DNA from: a virus
Taxonomy: Duplodnaviria; Heunggongvirae; Uroviricota; Caudoviricetes
DNA: 10,407 bases
IMG/VR virus record: IMGVR_UViG_2695420809_000010
Span: 1-10,407 of that record
Strand: one strand, 5' to 3'
In this document: positions 1 through 10,407 of the stretch, one piece after another
Layout: each line of letters opens with the position of its first letter
Position numbering within the stretch: the stretch's first letter is position 1
Program-made: the position numbers and the translations under genes
Notes under the pieces: generated by a model
The model's input: only the letters and a program-made list of their open reading frames with translations
Databases searched by the model: none
Told to the model about the DNA's origin: nothing

Positions 1-273
1 CTCACGACGCGCCAGAAAATTGTTTCGTTCTGGCTGGGAGTGGCTTTCACGGAATGCCGCCATCCACACGGTTGCAGCACGACGGTATAAGCCCCTGGAC
101 TCCAGTTCTTCCGCCTGGCGGGTCAGGCACAAAATCACACGGGGATCGTTAGTGCCGACATAGAAATTGCGCACAGGTCTGGTTTCTCGAACTGGTTGTG
201 GTTCCGGTTCCTGCGCTCTCTCAGTCAGGCGCGGGAAATGTCTGCGTGTATCTCCTTCACAACGGTGAGCCAC
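1..273 (-). CDS. Possible 5' part of a minus-strand CDS running off the window start; product unknown
   Basis: The minus-strand frame is stop-free from 351 down to position 1 (117 codons). In-frame candidate starts are GTG 273..271, GTG 174..172 and ATG 63..61. It is absent from the ORF track because it leaves the window. It overlaps the + ORF 198..383 and a 57-codon minus ORF 398..225, so the true coding frame is unresolved. Confidence 0.3.
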   Translation of the reverse strand, partial: MAHRCEGDTRRHFPRLTERAQEPEPQPVRETRPVRNFYVGTNDPRVILCLTRQAEELESRGLYRRAATVWMAAFRESHSQPERNNFLARRE

Positions 274-413
274 ACGCCCACTCTGACGTAACTTGCTTGC
301 TGACTGCAGAACGCGCTGCCGTGAGTAACCTGCAAAAGCATCCGCAATGTCTCAGGAAGTACATCCCGGATGGGCTTCAATGAATTTCTGAACTTCATTC
401 AAAAGACTCATGA

Positions 414-1232
414 TCACCCCCTGAATCCTGCCGGGATCTGGCTGTAGTCCACGTTGTCGTAACTGGCTTTGAAGTACGGGTCCTCGCGTCTGGCTGCAGA
501 TACCGCAGGAACTTCCCAGGATTCTTCGAAATGACGATCTGGACCAAAGAACGTGACAGCCTGTTTCACAAATTGTGTGCCGCTATTGCCCATCGCAGAT
601 ACCCAGCCCGCGTAGCGTTTCACACCTTCCAGCATGGTTTCGGGGTTTACCCCCTCGTTCAAACGGGCTTTCCAGGCTTTGAAGGCTGCAGATTTTGAAT
701 TGCCACCAGCACGTTTGGGATATGCCAGCCATGCCTGCTCAAACTCCGGAGAGTATTCCGGTCGGTTTGAACGAACTCGCACGGACTCATCAACTGATGC
801 ACCAACAGCTATTGGTTCATTGACTGGTTCTTTGACTGGTTCAAAAGAGTGACTGGTTCTGGGTGAATCTCCTGCACTACCCCCTGGTGCAACTCCTGCA
901 CTACCTGGTGAATTTGCTGCACCAGATAGTGAATTATTTGCACTACCCCCTAGTGAATCTCCTGCACCATCCAGATGAAGGAGATAGATATTACTTGAGT
1001 TACCTTTTTCACCTTTCCGGGTGACTTTTTTTACCAGCCCGGAATCACAAAGGGCCGCAATATGATTCATCACAGAACGTTTGCTAATCTCGCACTGGTC
1101 AGCAATATGCTGGTAGCTGGGCCAGCACTCACCCTGATCGCTGGCATTATCAGCCAGCTTGATCAGAACCAGTTTTCGCAATGGATTACCCACTCGAATT
1201 TTCATCGCTTTAACCATCAGCTCCATACTCAT
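414..1232 (-). CDS. Phage replication initiation protein (O-like / DUF1376-type): N-terminal winged-HTH, low-complexity Gly/Ser/Ala linker, C-terminal DnaT-like domain
   Basis: 272-aa ORF. N-terminus (LVLIKLADNASDQGECWPSYQHIADQCEISKRSVMNHIAALCDSGLV) looks like the wHTH of phage replication initiators; C-terminus (EFEQAWLAYPKRAGGNSKSAAFKAWKARL) resembles the DnaT-like domain. Start ATG overlaps the upstream stop (ATGA at 1229..1232). Last gene of the Cro-side operon, the expected position for an O-like gene. Confidence 0.7.
   Translation of the reverse strand: MSMELMVKAMKIRVGNPLRKLVLIKLADNASDQGECWPSYQHIADQCEISKRSVMNHIAALCDSGLVKKVTRKGEKGNSSNIYLLHLDGAGDSLGGSANNSLSGAANSPGSAGVAPGGSAGDSPRTSHSFEPVKEPVNEPIAVGASVDESVRVRSNRPEYSPEFEQAWLAYPKRAGGNSKSAAFKAWKARLNEGVNPETMLEGVKRYAGWVSAMGNSGTQFVKQAVTFFGPDRHFEESWEVPAVSAARREDPYFKASYDNVDYSQIPAGFRG
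821..970. repeat. Direct-repeat cluster inside the replication gene linker; candidate origin iterons
   Basis: Three copies of tgactggttc (821..830, 833..842, 850..859), then degenerate ~22-bp repeats built on ctgcactacc(ccc)tRgtg (872..889, 896..910, 938..955) and gtgaatctcctgcac twice (863..877, 953..967). This is the inter-domain linker, where lambda places its origin within O. Confidence 0.4.
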
Positions 1233-1465
1233 GCTGCACCTCCGAGATGCTTCATGTTTTTTCCGGAGCGAAAGGCTATAAGCGGCATACTGACGCGGTA
1301 ATTACGGCCCAGCGGTTCACAAACCACCTTCTGACATTCACGGTCAACCAGGCTAACACGTAGAACATGCCCTGCAGGCGTGGTGTACCACTGCCCAACT
1401 GTAGGAATTGATGTTTTTTTACGCTGAAGCAAACGGCAAATATTGAGGATCAACGGATTAAGCAT
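1229..1465 (-). CDS. Hypothetical protein, 78 aa, three Cys; translationally coupled early-operon gene
   Basis: ATG 1465..1463 overlaps the end of the upstream ORF (stop 1460..1458) and its stop overlaps the start of the replication gene. No family recognised. Confidence 0.5.
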   Translation of the reverse strand: MLNPLILNICRLLQRKKTSIPTVGQWYTTPAGHVLRVSLVDRECQKVVCEPLGRNYRVSMPLIAFRSGKNMKHLGGAA

Positions 1466-2294
1466 GACGATGCCCTCCGCTGATATTCAGGAGACGGTGA
1501 ATATGAAAATTAGCCTTATCCGCCAAACGGATACGTTCAGCCTGCAAGTTAAGAAGGGTTTCTACCAGAACCTGATGCGCCTGCGGATCCGAAAGAGTTA
1601 CCTTGCGCAGAGCACGTAGTGCAGTTGTTACATAACTGAGTTTATGTAAGTCTTCATCATTCAGACGAGTGAGGGCTGGGACAGTAGCCATGATGGCAGC
1701 CTCCGATAACAGTGAATTACCTTCACCACCGGAAACGCCAATTTCGCTGGTGGTGAACTGAACGGGGTTGGCGTAACCGGCGTTATCGGAAACCGGCGCA
1801 CCTTTCAGTGCCCCCGTCCAGCCCACCATAATTTGGGTGTGCGCAGACGCAGACGATAAAAAAGACGCTGGCGCGTCATATATCGCCGATAACATTTCCA
1901 GGACGCCAATCCCGGCACCCGCTTTATAAGGTGCCTGAACAGTGTAACGTCCCGGAATGGCAGAATCAATGTGCTGGTGGTCCTTCACACTCAACAAAAT
2001 CACGCCTGAATTTCCACAAAGGACTAAAGCACTCATGCGGGTAGTCTTTGCGAAGATAGATAACGCGCTGTGTTTCTGGCTCCCAACGAATAACATGAAC
2101 ATAAAGTCCTCTTCCGTCACGAAACCAGCGGTTAAGTTCCTGCACAACTCGCCCCCCACAGTCAGGTAAAGTTCTCTGTGGTTACTTACAGCCAGGAGAT
2201 TTGGTAATCTGCATTCATGCCGTAACAACAGGTGTTCAGCGACGCTGACCACCAGCTGTTGCGACAAACGGTTATTTGCCGTTAAACTGTTCAT
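1458..2294 (-). CDS. Hypothetical protein, 278 aa, function unknown
   Basis: Long ORF with ATGA start/stop overlap to the CII-like gene (2291..2294) and an 8-nt overlap with the next gene. Contains glycine-rich segments (CGNSGVILL, YKAGAGIGVLEML) that might mark a nucleotide-binding fold, but I cannot assign a family. Confidence 0.65.
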   Translation of the reverse strand: MNSLTANNRLSQQLVVSVAEHLLLRHECRLPNLLAVSNHRELYLTVGGELCRNLTAGFVTEEDFMFMLFVGSQKHSALSIFAKTTRMSALVLCGNSGVILLSVKDHQHIDSAIPGRYTVQAPYKAGAGIGVLEMLSAIYDAPASFLSSASAHTQIMVGWTGALKGAPVSDNAGYANPVQFTTSEIGVSGGEGNSLLSEAAIMATVPALTRLNDEDLHKLSYVTTALRALRKVTLSDPQAHQVLVETLLNLQAERIRLADKANFHIHRLLNISGGHRHA

Positions 2295-2842
2295 GCGTTA
2301 GTTTCTCCACAGACACAAAACGCCACGACGCCCGGAGCTGCACACTCGCGGGCGTCACTCTTTTCTGGAGCGCAAAAGATTTTGTAGACCAGTGCTGCAT
2401 GCTCCTGGAGCTTCGAAATTGACAGATACAACTCATCATTAATTGCTGTCTGCTCGTGTGGCTCCACTACCCCATCTTCGATTGCCGAACGAATCTGCTT
2501 TGAGTAACTCCCGATCTGTTCGATGACTTCCAGCAGGCGCTGGTTTATATCGGCGTTCTCTACTTCCTCAATTTCAGGAAGCGATACAAACACCCCACCA
2601 GCAGACTGTGCGACAGCATCCGCAATGTAGTGAGTGCCAGCCGCGCGCTGTAAAATCATTGCCCATCCCAGCGGGAAAATCTGATCGCCATCTGCACGAA
2701 GGCGGTTGAATAAAGCGTTCTCTGTTACATCTAGCCACTCAGCAGCTTCAGCGTACCCCCCCGGCAACGCCGCGATAGTTTTTCTGACAGCTTTCACGTA
2801 CCACTCAGGCTGTTTTTCCACTTTCCAGTGATGCTTACCCAC
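2291..2842 (-). CDS. Phage regulatory protein, CII (CP76) / YdaT-like, 183 aa
   Basis: Sits directly after the Cro-like gene. GTG start at 2842 is preceded by a strong SD (AGGAGG, 6-nt spacer). The central region (AEWLDVTENALFNRLRADGDQIFPLGWAMILQRAAG) resembles, from memory, the phage-186 CII / YdaT family; I could not verify this by search. Confidence 0.55.
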   Translation of the reverse strand: MGKHHWKVEKQPEWYVKAVRKTIAALPGGYAEAAEWLDVTENALFNRLRADGDQIFPLGWAMILQRAAGTHYIADAVAQSAGGVFVSLPEIEEVENADINQRLLEVIEQIGSYSKQIRSAIEDGVVEPHEQTAINDELYLSISKLQEHAALVYKIFCAPEKSDARECAAPGVVAFCVCGETNA

Positions 2843-3095
2843 GGCTTACCTCCTGTTCCTGTGGTTTAAACCCATTCTGGTTTTGGCTAGATTGAAAACG
2901 TGCCGGATAAAGAATCTGCATTTCGCTGATTTCACCCTTAAAAAAATTGGCCAGACGTTCTGCAAGATCGATAGATGGAATTTGTTCCAGTCTTTCAATA
3001 CGACTCAGCGTCGCTGGATTGACCTGAACGCCAGCAGCAACATGCTGCAAAGTAAATCCGTGCGCCTTACGCACATTCCGTAATGGTGATTGCAT
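2835..3095 (-). CDS. cro: Cro-like XRE-family HTH regulator, 86 aa
   Basis: HTH motif (GFTLQHVAAGVQVNPATLSRIERLEQIPSIDLAERLA). Divergent from the CI-like repressor across a 97-bp operator region. SD GGAGG lies 4 nt before the ATG at 3095. Confidence 0.8.
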   Translation of the reverse strand: MQSPLRNVRKAHGFTLQHVAAGVQVNPATLSRIERLEQIPSIDLAERLANFFKGEISEMQILYPARFQSSQNQNGFKPQEQEVSRG

Positions 3096-3192
3096 ATGAC
3101 CTCCACATATTGCGTGATGAGCATATTATTTCACGCAAATATTTTGCGCAAGTTGATTTGCTTAACGCGCAATAAAGAAATGTAATAAACGC
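3096..3192. promoter_or_regulatory. Divergent promoter/operator region of the immunity switch (OR-like: PR toward cro, PRM-like toward cI)
   Basis: Minus-strand promoter: -35 TTGCGC (plus 3146..3151), 17-bp spacer, -10 TAATAT (plus 3123..3128). Plus-strand candidate: -35 TTGCTT (3158..3163), 17-bp spacer, -10 TGTAAT (3181..3186), placing the start at or near the cI ATG. Five CGCAA/TTGCG half-sites in 97 bp, including the inverted pair TTGCGTGA (3110..3117) / TCACGCAA (3131..3138), the palindrome TTGCGCAA (3144..3151), and TTGCTTAACGCGCAA (3158..3172). Confidence 0.6.
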
Positions 3193-3885
3193 ATGAACAT
3201 AGGAAATCGAGTCAGACAACTTCGCCAGGCGAAGAACATGAAAATCGCCGATCTCGCTGAAGCAATAGGAGTGGATGCGGCGAATATCTCACGCCTGGAA
3301 ACAGGTAAGCAGAAACAATTCACTGAACAAGCCCTGAGTAATATTGCCAGGAGCTTAGGTGTTGATATTGCTGATCTCTTTACCTCAGACTTCAAAAGTA
3401 ATACTGTATGTAAAAACAGTATTAGTGAGGATGTTGCGCAGGTGAAGGATGTATTCCGTATTGAAATGCTGGATGTCAGTGCCAGTGCGGGAAATGGCCT
3501 TATCCAGGGCGGTGATGTCATTGATGTGATTCATGCCATTGAATACAGAACTGATAATGCTGTATCGATGTTTGGCGGACGACCAGCCAATCACATTAAA
3601 GTTATCAACGTTCGTGGGGACAGTATGTGTCCAACCATTGAGCCAGGAGATCTCATCTTCGTTGATGTCAGTATCAATCAGTTTGATGGAGATGGTATCT
3701 ATGTATTTGGTTTTGATGATAAAATTTATGTCAAACGACTGCAAATGATACCTGACAAACTACTGGTGATTTCTGATAACCAGATTTACCGTGAATGGGG
3801 AATTACCAGCGAAAATGAACACCGGTTTATGGTCTTTGGAAAGGTCTTAATCAGCCAGTCACAAACCCTTAAGCGACACAATTAA
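3193..3885 (+). CDS. cI: CI-type prophage repressor: N-terminal XRE HTH plus C-terminal S24 (LexA-like) autopeptidase domain, 230 aa
   Basis: N-terminal HTH (IADLAEAIGVDAANISRLETGKQ). C-terminal domain carries the Ser motif (RGDSMCPTIEPGDLIFVD) and a downstream Lys (YVKRLQ), as in LexA/CI. No SD precedes the ATG, consistent with a leaderless maintenance transcript. Confidence 0.9.
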   Translation: MNIGNRVRQLRQAKNMKIADLAEAIGVDAANISRLETGKQKQFTEQALSNIARSLGVDIADLFTSDFKSNTVCKNSISEDVAQVKDVFRIEMLDVSASAGNGLIQGGDVIDVIHAIEYRTDNAVSMFGGRPANHIKVINVRGDSMCPTIEPGDLIFVDVSINQFDGDGIYVFGFDDKIYVKRLQMIPDKLLVISDNQIYREWGITSENEHRFMVFGKVLISQSQTLKRHN

Positions 3886-3905
3886 CCCTTACCTCCTCAT
3901 CAATT

Positions 3906-3927
3906 AGCCACCCGAAGGTGGCTTTTC
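3906..3927 (+). terminator. Intrinsic terminator downstream of cI
   Basis: Stem AGCCACC (3906..3912), loop CGAA, stem GGTGGCT (3917..3923), followed by TTTTC; 20 nt after the cI stop. Confidence 0.75.
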
Positions 3928-3940
3928 ATTACCCATCAAA

Positions 3941-3992
3941 TTGCATATCTCGCAACAAAACACTTGCACAATGCGCAATTTCATTTTATCTT
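3941..3992 (+). promoter_or_regulatory. OL/PL-like operator-promoter region for the plus-strand early operon
   Basis: Two 15-bp sites of the form TTGC-N7-GCAA (TTGCATATCTCGCAA at 3941..3955; TTGCACAATGCGCAA at 3964..3978), matching the OR site at 3158..3172. Possible -35 TTGCAC (3964..3969) with a weak -10 near 3987..3992. Exact promoter elements are uncertain. Confidence 0.45.
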
Positions 3993-4403
3993 TCTTTCCA
4001 GACCAACAAACAAGGTACTAACAAAATTTGGTTGTAACACGGCGTATGGCACATGCGTCGTTAGCGGTCTGGGGACGTTAAAGGGGACAATCCACTCCTT
4101 GCTCGGGCAAACAAACCAGGTAGCCGGAATGTGCAAGTCAATGATGATGCTGATAAGACGCCTAACCAGCGTGGCGATCCGGTTTGACGCCTGGGAAGAG
4201 ACCAGGGGGCAACGATGAGGGCATTTATGGAGCCGCGACAAAGTGTGGTGCCGTAACTGGCTAAGTGCTCTCAGCGTTGTGGTAATCCGCGAAATGGCGC
4301 GGCGGTAAGTATGGCGGGGTTACTCTTTCCCCGTTGAGGACACCGGATTGTCAGGTTGACCATACGCCTGAGTGACAACCCCACCACAACAGCCACTGCT
4401 TTG

Positions 4404-4450
4404 GCGGTACCAGTTTGTACACTTGCTTCCGGCTGGTACCGCTCTTTTTA
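4404..4450 (+). terminator. Terminator-like hairpin within the leader upstream of the yfdP-like gene
   Basis: Perfect 10-bp stem GCGGTACCAG (4404..4413) / CTGGTACCGC (4433..4442), 19-nt loop, followed by TCTTTTTA (4443..4450). Confidence 0.45.
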
Positions 4451-4538
4451 CAAAACAGAGAAGAGCATCACCGGACGACGGGCTCATAACCCAATCCATC
4501 CGGGCGGCTGCCACCGCAGGTGTTCTTCTCTGTTTTGT
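4450..4538 (+). repeat. 15-bp perfect inverted repeat with 59-nt spacer in the leader RNA
   Basis: ACAAAACAGAGAAGA (4450..4464) is the exact reverse complement of TCTTCTCTGTTTTGT (4524..4538). It lies immediately after the terminator-like hairpin and about 50 nt before the yfdP-like start. Confidence 0.6.
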
Positions 4539-4586
4539 GGAGAAACCAACCGACCTTGCAGGGTCGATATGATGAGGAGCAGCAAA

Positions 4587-4949
4587 ATGGCTAGCGAACG
4601 CAGTACTGATGTGCAGGCATTTATCGGGGAGCTGGACGGCGGCGTATTTGAAACCAAAATCGGCGCAGTTCTCAGTGAAGTCGCTTCCGGTGTGATGAAC
4701 ACGAAAACCAAAGGGAAGGTCTCACTCAACCTGGAAATCGAACCATTTGATGAGAACCGTGTGAAAATCAAACACAAACTCTCATATGTTCGCCCGACTA
4801 ACCGCGGGAAAATTTCCGAAGAAGACACCACCGAAACGCCGATGTATGTCAATCGCGGTGGTCGCCTGACTATTCTGCAGGAAGACCAGGGACAATTACT
4901 GACTCTTGCCGGTGAACCTGACGGAAAACTCCGCGCAGCAGGTCATTAA
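4587..4949 (+). CDS. yfdP: YfdP-like prophage early protein, 120 aa, function unknown
   Basis: Internal ATG at 4587 preceded by SD GAGGAG (4574..4579, 7-nt spacer). The track's longer ORF from 4356 runs through the structured leader and has no SD. The 120-aa length and the MASERSTDVQAF N-terminus match my recollection of K-12 YfdP. Confidence 0.7.
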   Translation: MASERSTDVQAFIGELDGGVFETKIGAVLSEVASGVMNTKTKGKVSLNLEIEPFDENRVKIKHKLSYVRPTNRGKISEEDTTETPMYVNRGGRLTILQEDQGQLLTLAGEPDGKLRAAGH

Positions 4950-5014
4950 TATCGTTTTTAATAAACTGATTATTTCTCTCATCACTGAATATTTTTATAT
5001 AGTGAGGACTTATT

Positions 5015-5839
5015 ATGTCTCAGAACTTAGACTCATCCGCAATTAATCAAATCCATGCCCTTATTTCTGCTCAGGGTGTTAATGAAATTATCAGTAAGAT
5101 TGGTGCCGATGCTGTGGCATTGCCTGAGAATTTCCGCATTCATGATCTGGAAAAATTTAATTTAAATCGCTTCCGTTTCCGAGGTGCGCTTTCCACTGCA
5201 AGCATCGATGACTTTACCCGTTATTCTAAAGATCTTGCAGATGAAGGCACCCGCTGCTTTATCGATGCCGATAATATGCGAGCCGTCAGTGTGCTTAACT
5301 TGGGTACTATTGATGAACCAGGTCACGCAGATAACACCGCCACTCTCAAACTGAAAAAGACAGCACCGTTCTCTGCCCTGTTGTCTGTTAACGGCGAGCG
5401 TAACTCCCAGAAGTCACTGGCAGAATGGATTGAAGACTGGGCCGACTACCTTGTGGGCTTTGATGCTAATGGTGACGCTATTCAGGCAACAAAAGCGGCT
5501 GCGGCAGTCCGTAAAATTACGATTGAAGCAAACCAGACCGCTGATTTTGAAGATAATGACTTCAGCGGCAAACGCTCCCTGATGGAGTCTGTCGAAGCGA
5601 AGACCAAAGACATTATGCCAGTGGCATTTGAATTTAAATGCGTTCCGTTTGAAGGCCTGAAAGAACGTCCGTTTAAATTACGCCTCAGCATTATCACTGG
5701 CGATCGTCCTGTACTGGTTCTGCGCATTATTCAGCTGGAAGCAGTCCAGGAAGAAATGGCTAACGAATTTCGTGATCTGCTTGTTGAGAAATTCAAGGAC
5801 AGCAAAGTAGAAACCTTTATTGGTACTTTCACCGCCTGA
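5015..5839 (+). CDS. yfdQ: YfdQ-like DUF2303-family prophage protein, 274 aa
   Basis: 274-aa ORF with SD GTGAGGA 5 nt before the ATG. Length and sequence agree with my recollection of CPS-53 YfdQ, and it is followed by the yfdR-like gene as in K-12. Confidence 0.8.
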
Positions 5840-5851
5840 TTTCATTACTGC

Positions 5852-5873
5852 AAATGCCCCTGCGGGGGCATTT
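5852..5873 (+). terminator. Intergenic hairpin between the yfdQ-like and yfdR-like genes; weak or partial terminator, or an mRNA-stabilising structure
   Basis: AAATGCCCC (5852..5860), loop TGCG, GGGGCATTT (5865..5873): a perfect 9-bp stem. There is no clean U-tract beyond the stem, so termination is probably partial. Confidence 0.4.
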
Positions 5874-5966
5874 ATGGAAACGTAATTGACTCAATAATCG
5901 CCGGATGGTGAGTGCTTCCTTTTACCATAATCCAGCGCGGTGCAGCGCATATACGTGGAGAACAAA

Positions 5967-6503
5967 ATGTCATTTATTAAAACTTTTTCCGGGAAGCATT
6001 TTTATTATGACAAGATAAATAAAGATGACATCGTTATTAACGATATCGCGGTTTCCCTTTCAAATATCTGTCGCTTTGCCGGTCATCTTTCGCACTTCTA
6101 CAGCGTCGCCCAACATGCGGTTCTTTGCAGCCAGCTGGTGCCGCAGGAATTTGCTTTTGAAGCGTTAATGCATGATGCAACAGAAGCGTATTGCCAGGAC
6201 ATTCCCGCACCACTGAAACGCCTTCTTCCTGACTATAAACGGATGGAAGAAAAAATAGACGCCGTAATCCGTGAGAAATACGGGTTACCCCCAGTTATGA
6301 GTACACCCGTGAAATATGCCGATCTCATCATGCTGGCAACCGAACGCCGCGATCTCGGGCTTGATGATGGCTCTTTCTGGCCTGTACTGGAAGGCATCCC
6401 GGCAACAGAGATGTTCAACGTGATTCCACTGGCACCGGGCCATGCCTACGGGATGTTTATGGAACGTTTTAACGATTTATCGGAGTTACGCAAATGCGCA
6501 TGA
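5967..6503 (+). CDS. yfdR: HD-domain phosphohydrolase, YfdR-like 5'-deoxynucleotidase, 178 aa
   Basis: ATG at 5967 with SD GGAG (5957..5960); the track's ORF begins at an upstream GTG (5940). HD-domain signature spacing is present (H..H then D in AGHLSHFYSVAQHAVLCSQ...LMHDATEAYCQDIP). Confidence 0.85.
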   Translation: MSFIKTFSGKHFYYDKINKDDIVINDIAVSLSNICRFAGHLSHFYSVAQHAVLCSQLVPQEFAFEALMHDATEAYCQDIPAPLKRLLPDYKRMEEKIDAVIREKYGLPPVMSTPVKYADLIMLATERRDLGLDDGSFWPVLEGIPATEMFNVIPLAPGHAYGMFMERFNDLSELRKCA

Positions 6504-6856
6504 ATGTTCTCGAAATGGAAGGGTTTCTTCGCGGGAAATGTGTACCGCGAGATCTGAAAGTGAACGAAACAAATGCTGAGTACCTGGTACATAAATTCGA
6601 CGCGCTTGAAGCTAAATGTGCGGCACTGGAAAACAAAATAATACCAGTGTCAGCTGAACTGCCACCAGCAAATGAAAGTGTTCTGTTATTTGATGCTAAC
6701 GGAGAAGGCTGGCTGATTGGCTGGCGTTCTCTCTGGTACACCTGGGGACAAAAAGAAACCGGAGAATGGCAGTGGACATTTCAGGTCGGGGACCTTGAAA
6801 ACGTCAATATCACTCACTGGGCAGTAATGCCGAAAGCACCGGAGGCGCGAGCATAA
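6494..6856 (+). CDS. yfdS: YfdS-like prophage protein with a DUF551-like C-terminus, 120 aa
   Basis: Start overlaps the yfdR-like stop; SD GGAG 9 nt upstream. C-terminal region (GEGWLIGW...ITHWAVMPKAPE) is paralogous to the C-terminus of the next gene. Confidence 0.75.
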   Translation: MRMNVLEMEGFLRGKCVPRDLKVNETNAEYLVHKFDALEAKCAALENKIIPVSAELPPANESVLLFDANGEGWLIGWRSLWYTWGQKETGEWQWTFQVGDLENVNITHWAVMPKAPEARA

Positions 6857-7635
6857 TGATCACGTTTACCGACAAAGAACTGATTAAAGAAATCAAAGAG
6901 CGCATAGGAAGCCTGGATGTGAGAGACAATATTGAACGCCGCGCTTATGAAATCGCACTGGCATCGCTGGAAGAGGATCCGGTGGCATGGCTGCATTCAG
7001 ACAATGGCTTAGGTATTCCGGCAATAACCAGGAGTAAAAACATTGCTGACAGTTGGTTATCAAAGGGCTGGTATGTTCAGCCGCTATATATAGCCAAGCC
7101 AGTACCAGTGGCGCCAGATGCTCGTCCGTCTTTAAATAATGGCATAGTCGGTTTTGATGAAGGCTGGAACGCCCGCCGCACCGCCATGATTCATGGTGCC
7201 GTACCTGCAAGCCAGGCTTACAAGTTGCCACAAACGCAGTTTAAACAGGTTGCTGACCTCTACGAAATGCAATTTGATGACGGTCGCACTTGTACCTTTC
7301 ACACTGATGCGCAAAAGGCTGTGCAATGGCTTCAGGCGTGCGACGGAAACAGGGTTCAGGAATACGTTAAGCTGGAACGATTGCAGAACGCACTGTCTGG
7401 CAACTCTCCGGTAATTCCGGATGGTTGGATAAGCTGTAGTGAGCGAATGCCGAACGATAAACAGTATGTTTGGTGTTGGGGTAAGTCTTACGGCTGGACT
7501 GAGTGCGATACCTTCGAAGGGTATTACGATTGGTCGAGAAACAAATGGTGGGCAGTTACTGACGATGGGGAAGAACCGGCATCGAAAGTAACCCACTGGA
7601 TACCGCTACCGGAGCCGCCGCAGGAGGTGAAGTAA
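6856..7635 (+). CDS. yfdT: YfdT-like protein with C-terminal DUF551 domain, 259 aa
   Basis: TAATG overlap with the upstream stop; SD GGAGG 8 nt upstream. C-terminal W-rich domain ends in THWIPLPEPP, typical of DUF551 phage proteins. The N-terminus (MITFTDKELIKEIKERIG) matches my recollection of K-12 YfdT. Confidence 0.75.
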   Translation: MITFTDKELIKEIKERIGSLDVRDNIERRAYEIALASLEEDPVAWLHSDNGLGIPAITRSKNIADSWLSKGWYVQPLYIAKPVPVAPDARPSLNNGIVGFDEGWNARRTAMIHGAVPASQAYKLPQTQFKQVADLYEMQFDDGRTCTFHTDAQKAVQWLQACDGNRVQEYVKLERLQNALSGNSPVIPDGWISCSERMPNDKQYVWCWGKSYGWTECDTFEGYYDWSRNKWWAVTDDGEEPASKVTHWIPLPEPPQEVK

Positions 7636-7829
7636 TGAACAACTTAATGACAACAAAACAAGTTGCCGAATTCTGTGGCGTTTCAGTATCGACAGTTCTT
7701 CGCTGGAACAGCGTAAACAGGAGAACTGGCCAGAAATACAGGCCTGACTTTCCAGATCCTGATATTAAATCCTGCCCAAATAAATGGGCATCACGCAAGA
7801 TATACAGGTTTGCTGGAGTTATTGAGTAA
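7635..7829 (+). CDS. Excisionase-family (Xis/AlpA-like, HTH_17) DNA-binding protein, 64 aa
   Basis: TAATG overlap with the upstream gene; strong SD AGGAGGTGA. The motif TKQVAEFCGVSVSTVLRW is the typical excisionase/AlpA winged-helix. It is the last gene of the plus-strand early operon, the usual position for xis. Confidence 0.75.
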   Translation: MNNLMTTKQVAEFCGVSVSTVLRWNSVNRRTGQKYRPDFPDPDIKSCPNKWASRKIYRFAGVIE

Positions 7830-8050
7830 CGTGTATTATCTCAGATGGGAGCTGACACATCTATGGCACAGAGCCAAACCTAATCTGACAGCTTGCGCTA
7901 TGCTGTGAGTTCAACGGGTCGATGCAACGCTATCCTTGAACAACGGGGAACAGCTCAGTCAGCTGGTGCGCCCGGCGGCGATTCTTGATGTACGCGCTGC
8001 AAGATACTGTCACTTTAGACAATCTGCAAAACATATCACGACCGACTTTT

Positions 8051-8138
8051 CACAATAAGTGCGCACTATTGTGAATTGAATTCTGGAAGTATCGCCTAGT
8101 TATATAACGTTAACTGATTGTTTTTTCTAGCGTAGAAT
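8051..8138 (+). promoter_or_regulatory. Putative promoter with an upstream near-perfect palindrome (operator candidate) for the small orphan gene
   Basis: 23-bp palindrome CACAATAAGTGCGCACTATTGTG (8051..8073), imperfect by one extra A, with a perfectly palindromic AGTGCGCACT core. Candidate promoters: -35 TTGAAT (8076..8081) with -10 TATATA (8101..8106), or -35 TTAACT (8110..8115), 17-bp spacer, -10 TAGAAT (8133..8138). Confidence 0.4.
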
Positions 8139-8151
8139 GAGGGATTTATCG

Positions 8152-8340
8152 ATGAAAGAAGAACTGATTGAACTATACAAAGACTCCTTACTTTTAGGAA
8201 AATATATTGAGCTGGAACATATTGCTAATGGCATGTTACCAGGCCTATTTCCTGGAAAGGAACTAGAAGAACTTTCTGACAAGGAGTTAATTGCATTAAC
8301 TAAAGCCGTAATTACAGGTATGACCTCGTGGCTGTGCTAA
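8152..8340 (+). CDS. Hypothetical small acidic protein, 62 aa, in the AT-rich islet
   Basis: ATG at 8152 preceded by SD GAGGG (8139..8143, 8-nt spacer); the track's ATG at 8137 lacks an SD. A palindromic terminator follows 15 nt after the stop. No family recognised. Hand-counted GC is about 37%, lower than flanking phage genes. Confidence 0.5.
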   Translation: MKEELIELYKDSLLLGKYIELEHIANGMLPGLFPGKELEELSDKELIALTKAVITGMTSWLC

Positions 8341-8354
8341 TACTGATTAAAACT

Positions 8355-8370
8355 GGCGGCATATGCCGCC
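8355..8370. terminator. Perfect 16-bp palindrome between the convergent orphan genes; candidate bidirectional terminator
   Basis: GGCGGCATATGCCGCC is identical on both strands: a 6-bp GC stem with AUAU loop. The minus-strand transcript continues into AGUUUUAAU; the plus-strand tail is less U-rich. Confidence 0.55.
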
Positions 8371-8444
8371 ATAATACAACTAACTCGAACAGCCTGCCGT
8401 AGGCGTTATCTTCAATGGTCAGTGGTTATAGCAATACCCTCTCG

Positions 8445-8996
8445 TCATGAATATCGGAGATTTAGTCGGGAATACAGCCTTTCTATCTCATCGACAACTT
8501 TGCTAAACTCTTTGGCTAATTTGGGTGGCAATTCAATATGCCCATGCTGGTTCGCTAGGTCACCAGTATTTAATATTTCAAAACGTTTTCTAGCAAGATA
8601 CAACCATCTGATCACATCAGGATCATTTACAAGAGCCTGGCGGATATTGTCTACCTGCTGCCCCCTATAAATCCGCGTACTATCAGGTAGAAATAAAATA
8701 TTTTCCGTACGATAAGGATATGGCGTGATATCCAGCATTTCTCCAGCATCATTCTCCCAAATACAGTGGAACTCAGCTTCAATATAAACTCCCGGTACCT
8801 GCCAGATAGCCCAACCGTAAACAGCTCTTCCGCCATTCTGTTCAATCACCATTTCAACATTCGAAAAGCAGTCCATAACTTCCGCTCCCGAGAAAGGTTC
8901 ATTTTTAATCAATACAGCATGAGCATCAGGAACAACTTGCAGACAAAAATTCAGGGTTTCAGGCGTATCTAACTGTGCGGGTATTGGATGGTGCAT
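8445..8996 (-). CDS. Hypothetical protein, 183 aa, function unknown; orphan gene in the integrase-proximal islet
   Basis: ATG at 8996 with SD AAGGA 5 nt upstream. Lies 188 nt downstream of the integrase stop on the same strand and converges on the 62-aa gene. AT-rich relative to the phage core. No recognisable domain. Confidence 0.6.
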   Translation of the reverse strand: MHHPIPAQLDTPETLNFCLQVVPDAHAVLIKNEPFSGAEVMDCFSNVEMVIEQNGGRAVYGWAIWQVPGVYIEAEFHCIWENDAGEMLDITPYPYRTENILFLPDSTRIYRGQQVDNIRQALVNDPDVIRWLYLARKRFEILNTGDLANQHGHIELPPKLAKEFSKVVDEIERLYSRLNLRYS

Positions 8997-9183
8997 AGCA
9001 TTCCTTACATTAGAGCTAAATGGGAGGTTTGTAGTAAAGGACTTGCAGATAATGTCATCGCTGGCGAAGTTTTGGTTTCATTGACTGCTTATCTGTGTCT
9101 GCTCACTTATCAATCAATAGTTTTACTGCAATCTGGCGACACCGTTTGTATAAGAATATCCGTTCCTAGCTCAGAGCGAACTA

Positions 9184-10407
9184 TCAGTTGGTGTCTGAGT
9201 TAGTACAAGTAACGATCGATTCAACTCTCTCCCACCATGCCAGGTAAGCTTTACGCTGTTCTTCTAGATAATCGCTCTTATCATAAACTTGCCATACCCC
9301 TGGCAGTTTATGACCTAGCATTATTTCTGCAATATGCGGCGCAGTAAGATCAGAAAAGTTTGTTCGTGCTGTTCGCCTCAAATCATGAAGAGACCAATGA
9401 GGGAATTGATACCCCAAACGCCGCCATGCGTACTGCATTAAATTGTAAGGCAGCGACTGCAATGATGTCCGACCAACGGGTTCCCTGCTTCCTTCCTTAG
9501 TAAAAAGCATATCGGAACCATTGTTCATAGAAATAGCGTACTTTATAAGCTCTTCAACCGGTTCAATAATGGGCCGCTTTAGCGGTTCGCCTGTTATGTC
9601 CCCTGTCTTATGTCGTTCAGGTGGTACAGTCCATACCTTATTTATGAAATCAAAATCACCCACCCTAGCAGTAATTAGCTCCGAACTACGGCAACCAAAA
9701 TGCAGTAATAGTTTAATGAAGGCCCGGTATTTGGGAACCATTCTAGAGCCATCGATCGCAGCATAAAGAATTTTAATTTCATCGTGTGTCAGAAACCGTT
9801 TCTTCTGACCTTTACGGATATCCATATCTTTACCCGTGATATCCGACAGCGGGCGAGTTTCAATAAGCTTTCTCTTATACGCCCAGACATGGGCCTGCTT
9901 TGCGTTAATTAGCAATCGGTCTGCTATTGCTGGAGTCTTAGTGCTAAGAGGCTCCAGGACTTCTAACCAATCATGCAATGTAGCTGCATCGTGAGGGATA
10001 TTCCCGATTTTAGAGAACAGGTGCAACTCAAACGAGCGGAGTATCTGTTCAGAACCCTTTTTATTTTTTACACAATATGCTTCATACCAGGCACGGATCA
10101 CAGACTCTACCGTCATGGCTTCAGTAGCTTTTCGTTTTTCAGCCTGCTTGACCAATCGTGGATTACGGTTTGACTCGAGTTCACCACGGAGACGGATAAC
10201 TTCTTCTCTGGCCTCTTTTAATCCAGTTGCCGGGTAAGTTCCGATATCAAGACGCTCACCTTTCCCTGCCCATTGATAACGATATTGGAACACTACGCGA
10301 CCTTTCGGTGATACTCTGACAGACAGACCATCACGATCGGATTTAACCAAAACCTTATCACGTTCCTTTCCAACGACTGAACGCAACCACGCATCAGACA
10401 GCGCCAT
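9184..10407 (-). CDS. int: Tyrosine site-specific integrase, P4-type (DUF4102 arm-binding N-terminus plus catalytic domain), 407 aa, complete
   Basis: N-terminus (LSVRVSPKGRVVFQYRYQWAGKGERLDIGTYPATGLKEAREE) has the DUF4102 pattern. Catalytic residues are in the expected order: R (HFGCRSSEL), H-x-x-R (HDLRRTART), and Tyr in LGHKLPGVWQVYDKSDY. The start ATG is at 10405..10407, the window edge. Confidence 0.95.
   Translation of the reverse strand: MALSDAWLRSVVGKERDKVLVKSDRDGLSVRVSPKGRVVFQYRYQWAGKGERLDIGTYPATGLKEAREEVIRLRGELESNRNPRLVKQAEKRKATEAMTVESVIRAWYEAYCVKNKKGSEQILRSFELHLFSKIGNIPHDAATLHDWLEVLEPLSTKTPAIADRLLINAKQAHVWAYKRKLIETRPLSDITGKDMDIRKGQKKRFLTHDEIKILYAAIDGSRMVPKYRAFIKLLLHFGCRSSELITARVGDFDFINKVWTVPPERHKTGDITGEPLKRPIIEPVEELIKYAISMNNGSDMLFTKEGSREPVGRTSLQSLPYNLMQYAWRRLGYQFPHWSLHDLRRTARTNFSDLTAPHIAEIMLGHKLPGVWQVYDKSDYLEEQRKAYLAWWERVESIVTCTNSDTN

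Follow-up and report, generated by a model that had tools for sequence, protein, structure and literature searches.

A probable P4-type RNA immunity module beneath a 278-codon reading frame in the early operon of a lambdoid prophage

This study was concerned with the question of what is encoded between a ymfL (cII-like) gene and a replication initiator gene in the virus record IMGVR_UViG_2695420809_000010 (Caudoviricetes). The window analysed is the stretch of 10,407 nucleotides (nt) from position 1 to 10,407 of that record, and the locus in question occupies its positions 1229 to 2294. An original prediction, made from the letters of the DNA, had described the locus as two uncharacterised, translationally coupled open reading frames (ORFs) of 278 and 78 amino acids (aa), and had proposed that they are replication accessory factors, a host-takeover function, or an early defence or anti-defence pair. 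Both ORFs are present between the CII-like gene and the replication initiator with the coordinates and the four overlaps that were described. The 278-codon frame does not represent a single uncharacterised protein gene. Genome annotation, codon-level analysis and Rfam searches show a composite that consists of a leader without constraint, a real gene overlapping in a different frame, genes for two structured RNAs and a short tail that does code for protein. The locus is a known kind of system, of the type found in P4, P1 and Gifsy-1, and not a new protein pair. It is probably a P4-type RNA immunity module that has been inserted into the early rightward operon of a lambdoid prophage of the SfV/CPS-53 type. 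This operon is encoded on the minus strand, and positions in the locus are also given as Q, obtained by subtracting the window position from 2295, so that Q1 corresponds to window 2294 and Q1066 to window 1229.

The RNA genes and their targets

Rfam identified two RNA families on the operon strand, IsrK (the P4 seqA-like RNA) and C4 (the P4 CI-like antisense RNA), each over the full length of its model and above its gathering score of 50 bits for RF01394 and 45 bits for RF01695 (Table 1). Both were found in every variant locus examined, in P4, and in three unrelated phages (P13803, Stx2a WGPS4 and phiV10). IsrK consists of two hairpins, a single-stranded segment that contains target a1, target b1 in the loop of hairpin 2, and an intrinsic terminator. 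The terminator was also identified by a terminator scan that is independent of Rfam, as a stem at 1864-1877 followed by a U-run (GACGCGCCAGCGTC then T6; in RNA letters, the 3' end of IsrK is GACGCGCCAGCGUC then U6). C4 consists of a 17-base-pair (bp) closing stem and two hairpins.

The RNA region exists in at least seven alleles, and seven were used for the comparison of specificity. The 27 pairs of the C4 fold were 100% paired over the 189 pair cells of these alleles, compared with 36-49% in slid controls, and eight of the pairs were changed on both sides in a compensatory manner. The fold of the 255-nt module has a z of -4.75, and its minimum free energy (MFE) structure contains hairpin 2 of IsrK, the terminator and the full C4 fold, with the downstream GGAGG inside a hairpin.

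Two parts of C4, the hairpin-2 loop a' (a stretch also written CCGAUAAC) and the junction b', are each complementary to two sites. Loop a' pairs with a1 over 9 bp and with a2 over 12 bp, and b' pairs over 7 bp with both b1 and b2, the latter located just 3' of C4. Site a2 contains the GGAGG Shine-Dalgarno sequence (1700-1704) of a 77-aa ORF, 8 nt before its Met202 AUG (1689-1691). The 10.4-kb window has exactly three copies of the word GTTATCGG, namely in a1, in a2 and as the complement of a', where 0.24 occurrences are expected and none of 200 shuffles reached three; the b-word occurs in the window only at its three sites. All three a-sites switch together in each of the seven alleles. Helices formed by a-sites of the same allele are 9-12 bp long in six alleles, L006 being the exception with 6-7 bp, and the scores across alleles are 3-8.5, giving a diagonal-dominant matrix. 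In one allele (L009) all three b-sites were switched to UUUCCAC/GUGGAAA. Phage SfV carries a different specificity allele, and P4 has its own triplets at the same three places (a, UUCACAGG; b, GUGAGAA).

The original prediction could name no family for the 278-aa protein, yet the long frame matches Pfam Phage_ASH (PF10554) with an E value of 1.6e-16 and 61.1 bits against a cutoff of 26. The match covers residues 117-210 (Q349-630), which is the region spanned together by isrK, C4 and the downstream target. In sequence and predicted fold, the "Ash domain" is two RNA genes on the operon strand.

The -10 element of a putative internal promoter, the candidate equivalent of PLE in P4 and PisrK in Gifsy-1, ends 6 nt before the 5' end of isrK, in a geometry like that of P4 (TTGCCT-18-TATAGT). 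Strong promoters end at the same distance from isrK in P13803 (TTGACT-17-TATATT) and Stx2a WGPS4 (TTGACG-18-TATATT), and there was no clear promoter upstream of isrK in phiV10. In all three of these phages the module is located upstream of antirepressor genes and no long ORF covers it. By analogy with P4 and Gifsy-1, transcripts of this promoter would be processed, and C4, as is expected of its family, would yield a stable small RNA through RNase P / PNPase.

Table 1. Features of the locus and its neighbours in the window.
Feature	Window position	Strand	Evidence or remark
cro-like helix-turn-helix (HTH) gene	2835-3095		
YmfL/CII-like gene	2291-2842	-	Pfam Phage_CP76; NCBIfam YmfL 4.4e-50
Long 278-codon frame (278-aa ORF; SfV orf37)	1458-2294	-	analogous to P4 eta
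149-nt leader after ymfL	2146-2294	-	no frame with coding constraint, no significant RNA structure
DUF4222 gene, 59 aa	1966-2145	-	GTG start behind a G-run; frame differs from that of the 278-codon ORF
Putative internal promoter (P4 PLE / Gifsy-1 PisrK equivalent)	1941-1969	-	TTGATT-17-TACACT, 8/12
IsrK / P4 seqA-like RNA	1858-1934	-	Rfam RF01394, 63.7 bits, model 1-77 of 77
Target b1 UUGGCGU	1903-1909	-	IsrK hairpin-2 loop; pairs with b'
Target a1 UGUUAUCGG	1886-1894	-	single-stranded part of IsrK; pairs with a'
C4 / P4 CI-like antisense RNA	1746-1833	-	Rfam RF01695, 79.8 bits, E 8.5e-15, model 1-87 of 87
Met156 AUG ("MVGW")	1827-1829	-	5' edge of C4; position of the first orf45 AUG of Gifsy-1
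Recognition loop a' UUUCCGAUAACG	1781-1792	-	C4 hairpin-2 loop
Junction b' ACGCCAA	1768-1774	-	C4
seqC-like target	1700-1741	-	b2 UUGGCGU 1735-1741; a2 UGUUAUCGGAGG 1700-1711
77-aa ORF from Met202	1458-1691	-	position of P4 kil; real coding tail, pN/pS 0.16
78-aa ORF (SfV orf38)	1229-1465	-	real gene; distant DUF4222-like paralogue
Replication initiator	414-1232	-	HTH_36/DnaD-like, phrog_270; gene that the RNA module would gate

Coding content of the 278-codon frame and the small genes

The annotations of this DNA differ from one another. The SfV authors and many NCBI records annotate the full 278 aa, the annotation of phage 2H10 begins at about residue 98 of the long frame, and the NCBI annotation pipeline PGAP, on DNA 100% identical to the window, reports a 59-aa DUF4222 gene in another frame and an "ash family" coding sequence (CDS) from Met87. 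The long frame also matches the PHROG families phrog_3960 and phrog_821 ("transcriptional regulator"), and its residues 1-86 have no Pfam match. To compare the frames, 243 related loci were gathered and two sets were picked, one via the downstream Ash part and one via YmfL, which avoids selection on the disputed DUF4222 and long-frame region. The loci were projected by BLAST for substitution counts by frame, from which pooled ratios of nonsynonymous to synonymous change (pN/pS) were calculated.

The leader (Q1-149) has pN/pS values of 0.50, 0.59 and 0.89 in the three frames, with 10, 16 and 12 variable sites by codon class, and its fold is not significant (z = -1.55). It is followed by the 59-aa ORF, which is a member of Pfam DUF4222 (PF13973; 9.5e-14, 51.1 bits against a cutoff of 27) and of phrog_1343. 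At Q150-258 pN/pS is 0.08 in the DUF4222 frame, with 1, 9 and 0 variable sites by codon class in the YmfL-selected loci, and 2.34 in the 278-codon frame. At the "Ash domain" (Q385-628) pN/pS is 1.43 in its own frame, so that the purifying selection expected of a folded Phage_ASH domain was not found, and the variable patches coincide with the RNA recognition sites. In the tail of the long frame (Q629-829) the value falls to 0.16, and in the core of the 78-aa ORF (Q899-1063) it is 0.19 in the 78-aa frame. The real coding sequence in the locus is the DUF4222 gene, the last 77 or so codons of the long frame and the core of the 78-aa ORF; the pattern of change in the "Ash domain" is not that of a protein. 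The glycine-rich segments that had been noted in the 278-aa product do exist, as translations of the RNA region.

The long frame nevertheless stays open while the peptide upstream of Met202 is unconstrained. From Q331 to the Met202 AUG it contains zero stops in the seven alleles and P4, compared with 18 and 28 in the other two frames, and the probability of a stop-free frame by shuffling is about 0.02 per allele. Direct translation confirmed that the long frame is open in every allele, and the indels between alleles are of 3 nt. An open frame with an unconstrained peptide is as predicted by the eta model, in which the long frame would be translated for no other purpose than to override the RNA block. 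The 278-aa product would then matter as an act of translation and not as a protein, if the analogy holds.

The 77-aa ORF begins behind the GGAGG within a2, and its stop is overlapped by the 78-aa ORF. Its product is predicted to be a two-helix hairpin (AlphaFold2 mean predicted local distance difference test, pLDDT, 83.7), and a fold search with the model gave generic helical hairpins only and no significant match. The 77-aa tail has no relatives outside the module: HMMER gave 11 matches among 1.8 billion representatives, of which the credible ones belong to the module itself and three match 800-aa proteins in multiple stretches. In sister alleles a Phage_pRha module (3.6e-30), which likewise starts "MATIP...", replaces the 77-aa tail; therefore, the slot after the RNA lock is exchangeable.

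Mosaic breakpoints were also observed to recur at about Q384, Q621-628 and Q899 when window positions 1229-2294 were compared with loci L005-L060. These sites lie in hairpin 2 of IsrK, just past the Met202 start, and where the conserved core begins within the 78-aa ORF. Their positions indicate that the RNA specificity cassettes and the payload (the 77-aa tail or the Rha module) reassort independently.

The 78-aa protein, which contains three cysteines as originally described, represents a small enterobacterial family with a conserved core from "GQWY" and an N-terminus that differs between classes. It is predicted to form an N-terminal helix and an SH3/Tudor/KOW-like barrel, and a fold search gave only generic SH3/Tudor/KOW matches. 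The protein of the window has no Pfam DUF4222 match, and three of 20 family members reach E 0.064 or weaker. PHROG cross-hits between the 78-aa protein and DUF4222 were 7e-07 for the e14 DUF4222 and 0.008 for the window's own, and the BLASTP value was 0.022. On these comparisons the 78-aa ORF should be filed as DUF4222-like and not as a DUF4222 member. No homology to any characterised protein was identified for the 77-aa ORF, the 78-aa ORF or DUF4222.

Proposed mechanism and alternative explanations

The immunity region of P4, in which PLE, seqA, the cI RNA and seqC lie inside the nested eta and kil genes, has its elements in the order and on the strand observed in the window. The two also share isrK/seqA and C4/CI matches above the Rfam thresholds (8692-8615 and 8507-8420 in P4, respectively), the a and b complementarities at the same three places, replication genes downstream, and a long ORF whose start overlaps the stop codon of the preceding gene. 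In P4 this ORF is eta, which runs without a stop for 217 codons and has a triple ATG (8767-8761) over the orf88 stop (8764). The BLASTP match of the window to the eta frame (5e-06) is carried by the RNA region. The start contexts of Met202 (ATCGGAGGCTGCCATCATGGCTAC) and P4 kil (CACAGGAGGCTGCCATCATGGCTAC) have 21 nt in common (GGAGGCTGCCATCATGGCTAC). According to the account in PMC10111431, citing Forti et al. 1999, a constitutive promoter lies within eta, its transcript is terminated via CI/seqA interactions and processed into CI, and Kil is a truncated Eta made on read-through. There are also differences. P4 is a satellite and its upstream gene is an alpA homologue, whereas the window is from a cI/cro lambdoid prophage and has ymfL; in addition, the window has an extra DUF4222 gene overlapping the long frame, a putative internal promoter that is weak, and two small ORFs before the replication gene in place of cII/epsilon and the rest.

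The C4 antisense RNA of P1 recognizes its target through two parts (a and b) and masks the ribosome-binding site (RBS) of a small leader ORF to which the genes after it are coupled. The immI region of P1 and P7 (c4 RNA-icd-ant) belongs with the window in the same Rfam family, which is described as the P1/P7 c4 antisense RNA. It differs in that no icd or ant homologue was found downstream in the window, where the targets are replication-module genes.

By analogy with P4, P1 and Gifsy-1, the following mechanism can be proposed. The operon would be read in the order leader, DUF4222, weak internal promoter, IsrK with its terminator, C4, the seqC-like target on the RBS of the 77-aa ORF, the 78-aa gene and the replication gene. 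On transcripts from the internal promoter, C4 RNA would pair with a1/b1 and a2/b2 and occlude the GGAGG, the untranslated RNA would be terminated, and the 77-aa, 78-aa and replication genes would remain off. When pR fires, ribosomes leaving ymfL would start again at the ATGA overlap and read the 278-codon frame across the RNA genes, which would block folding, pairing and termination and allow expression of the replication genes. The original prediction of coupled junctions was correct as to the overlaps, and the coupling of the long frame to ymfL at ATGA is probably the part of the finding that matters for function.

Several observations weigh against this mechanism. A promoter scan with a cut-off of a 9/12 consensus match gave no promoter before isrK, and the putative promoter there is weak. 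The 77-aa, 78-aa and replication genes each have their own GGAGG; because of this, polarity may depend on Rho rather than on coupling. The similarity of the 77-aa tail to P4 Kil is marginal past "MAT", with nothing convincing beyond the first residues. The pN/pS values are pooled pairwise counts over related, recombining sequences. Since the alleles are all approximately 98-99% identical over Q1-384, they amount to essentially a single observation of an open frame upstream of isrK, to which P4 and the ymfM frame of e14 can be added. Lastly, in Gifsy-1 the short IsrK activates and does not repress (PMC4825925).

The last point leads to an alternative that we consider fairly unlikely, in which the module is a positive switch of the Gifsy-1 type. 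In Gifsy-1, PisrK-isrK-orf45-anrP is such a switch: once the short IsrK, acting in trans, has opened an otherwise silent read-through mRNA, translation of orf45 (whose first AUG is at +107) leads by coupling to that of anrP (Hershko-Shalev 2016, PMC4825925). In the same paper IsrK is compared to P4 seqA, and STnc1160, a processed downstream RNA, to CI (PMC4825925). Applied to the window, a read-through transcript (isrK-C4-ORF) folded into a translationally silent form would be opened by short IsrK in trans, translation would begin at the Met156 AUG and proceed in frame into the 77-aa tail and then to the 78-aa and replication genes, and the module would be an activator that helps to trigger induction or replication and not an immunity lock. 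Besides the Gifsy-1 experiments themselves, this is favored by the placement of the Met156 AUG at about +106 from the isrK 5' end, by its being in frame with the downstream ORF in all seven alleles (in the window, the 77-aa ORF), by phrog_4908, which corresponds exactly to the possible 123-aa product from Met156 to the end, and by the GGAGG in a cis hairpin of the MFE structure. The isrK-orf45-anrP-isrJ locus and the window also share an IsrK with a terminator and translational coupling to the next gene, and the Rha-type antirepressor-like gene in sister alleles of the window parallels anrP. However, recognition by way of a'/a1/a2 and b'/b1/b2 is the logic of the repressors in P4 and P1, and the module lies within a pR-driven operon under an eta-like frame, as in P4 and unlike the Gifsy-1 or Stx-phage copies. 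The Gifsy-1 module has its own promoter and does not lie within an upstream-coupled long ORF, orf45 ends before anrP, and instead of replication genes it controls an antirepressor and, by way of this, AntQ. The positive switch and the immunity module are not mutually exclusive.

Two further explanations place the function in proteins. That the 278-aa ORF, or a version of it from Met87 or Val103, is a genuine Ash-family regulator or antirepressor with RNA elements merely embedded in its CDS is very improbable in our judgment. The Phage_ASH and "transcriptional regulator" matches, the "ash family protein" labels in NCBI records, the frame that is open in all alleles with in-frame indels, and a literature that treats Ash as a domain fused to Rha all speak for it. 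These points have to be set against the selection results for the Ash region, where the variable patches coincide exactly with the RNA recognition sites, against the extent of the Pfam match over isrK, C4 and seqC, and against the N-terminal 86 residues, which match nothing and overlap a real gene in another frame. In addition, the independent lineages P13803 and Stx2a WGPS4 have stops in all frames over isrK, and the Pfam match in P4 falls on an obsolete ORF over the CI RNA. The other explanation, which we regard as unlikely, is that the small proteins (the 77-aa hairpin, the 78-aa SH3-like protein and DUF4222) are the payload, as replication accessory proteins, host-takeover proteins or division inhibitors, or an anti-defence pair, and that the RNA is only a regulator. 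In its favour, all three show purifying selection, e14-like phages have a DUF4222 gene directly before the replication gene and overlapping it, the 77-aa ORF is in the position of P4 kil (which is toxic) and P1 icd, and the e14 DNA that encodes ymfM and DUF4222 causes filamentation; the lack of homology to characterised proteins, the absence of PADLOC matches and the generic fold matches count against it. This explanation complements the RNA module and does not replace it. The roles first proposed for the two ORFs can be divided accordingly by protein: a replication factor is possible for the DUF4222-like 78-aa protein, given the position of DUF4222 directly before the replication gene in e14-like phages, and host takeover is possible for the 77-aa ORF in its kil position. 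Replication factors, or a defence or anti-defence pair, made up of the 278-aa and 78-aa ORFs are not supported, as the central part of the former is an isrK and C4 module whose amino-acid sequence is not under purifying selection. Defence systems were also searched for directly, and this candidate was rejected, as PADLOC and NCBIfam gave nothing for either ORF.

Locus layout, distribution and annotation

The overlaps in the operon are 8 nt between cro and ymfL, ATGA (4 nt) between ymfL and the 278-codon frame, 8 nt between the 278-codon and 78-aa ORFs, and ATGA (4 nt) between the 78-aa ORF and the replication gene. The DNA of SfV, 2H10 and Ayreon, along all 1,066 nt and between the same neighbours, is 95.5-98.5% identical to the window and that of Stx2c phages approximately 92%; the SfV orf37 (labelled "immunity region") and orf38 DNA is 96% identical and that of 2H10 98.5%. 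The records of SfV, 2H10, Ayreon and the Stx2c phages differ from our description in that they list proteins only, and neither the RNAs nor the DUF4222 gene. Matches were found in 1,560 of 5,426 complete E. coli genomes, 439 of which cover at least 80% of the query DNA, and related DNA is also present in 338 phage records. Both frames are intact in relatives, with more than 100 clusters of 278 aa at 90-99% identity.

Intact e14-like phages have the order ymfL, DUF4222, replication gene. In comparison with these simpler relatives the window carries an inserted block, flanked by two DUF4222-type genes, which agrees with the original description of an insertion. The ymfL-ymfM-oweE region of e14 in E. 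coli K-12 shares with the window ymfL and an ATGA-started frame ("MNSLT...") over an embedded DUF4222. It differs in having no isrK or C4 by Rfam, and in that DUF4222 directly abuts the replication gene. The first 37 or so nt past the ymfL stop (ATGAACAGTTTAAC...; window 2258-2294, and 4323-4359 in the K-12 record, L244) are 78% identical between e14 and the window phage, and the next approximately 160 nt are unrelated. The conserved stretch could be a short regulatory element or a recombination boundary element.

Iteron-like direct repeats were observed inside the replication initiator gene at window 813-967, with GTGAATCTCCTGCAC-type units at 863-967 and three copies of TGACTGGTTC at 821-860. 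These repeats suggest that the O-like gene contains an origin, immediately downstream of the ORFs that the RNA would gate.

The family PF10554 deserves attention for annotation. In P4 (L245) it matches the obsolete "cI gene product" ORF (137 aa, 8168-8584) over the CI RNA, and epsilon (7888-8175), the helper-derepression protein, is a member of another family, PF25738. PF10554 served as the marker of epsilon in a survey of P4-like satellites (PMC8628076), which, because of this match, in effect detected the immunity RNA region. In the literature "Ash" is a protein domain of unknown function, or a "Bro network" gene containing the RNA. In a separate observation, phage P13803 (L246) contains at 2823-2906 a full-length match to Rfam sRNA-Xcc1 (79.6 bits against 53), under a 48-aa CDS annotated as "antirepressor antB" (2788-2934) just downstream of a Rha-type gene; here too an RNA may have been annotated as a protein.

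A similar question of frame concerns K-12 ymfM (L244, 4323-4681; "cell division inhibitor YmfM", 112 aa), in which a different frame contains a DUF4222 ORF that starts with TTG at 4502, behind AAGGAG. In four e14-like copies, all 12 of the 12 pairwise differences in the overlap were synonymous in the DUF4222 frame and nonsynonymous in the ymfM frame, and YmfM and the N-terminus of the window's long frame are alike only where DUF4222 is conserved. In the published filamentation work whole ORFs or fragments were cloned and no frame-specific mutants were found, and the active frame of ymfM was not resolved by the screens. The active product of the ymfM DNA may be DUF4222. We tentatively propose, as a possibility about which we remain doubtful, that the conserved products beside the replication genes are DUF4222-type small SH3-like proteins and not the annotated long frames, that SfiC of e14 is the DUF4222 protein inside ymfM, and that the window has two such inhibitors. 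If true, SfiC, an SOS-inducible inhibitor of division that is at present ascribed to the 112-aa YmfM, would really be a DUF4222 protein, and the second inhibitor of the window would be gated by an allele-specific RNA lock, a second layer of immunity over replication in a cI/cro phage.

For annotation, the "Ash family protein", "antirepressor" and "transcriptional regulator" calls under such DNA would largely be translated RNA genes. The locus would be a clear example of a frame kept open for the act of translation and not for its product, and it raises the question of frame assignment for K-12 ymfM. For the phages themselves, a P4-style allele-specific RNA lock would be located directly upstream of the replication genes in common lambdoid prophages, among them the SfV family and Stx-phage relatives, where it could add immunity or control of induction beyond cI/cro with at least seven interchangeable specificities.

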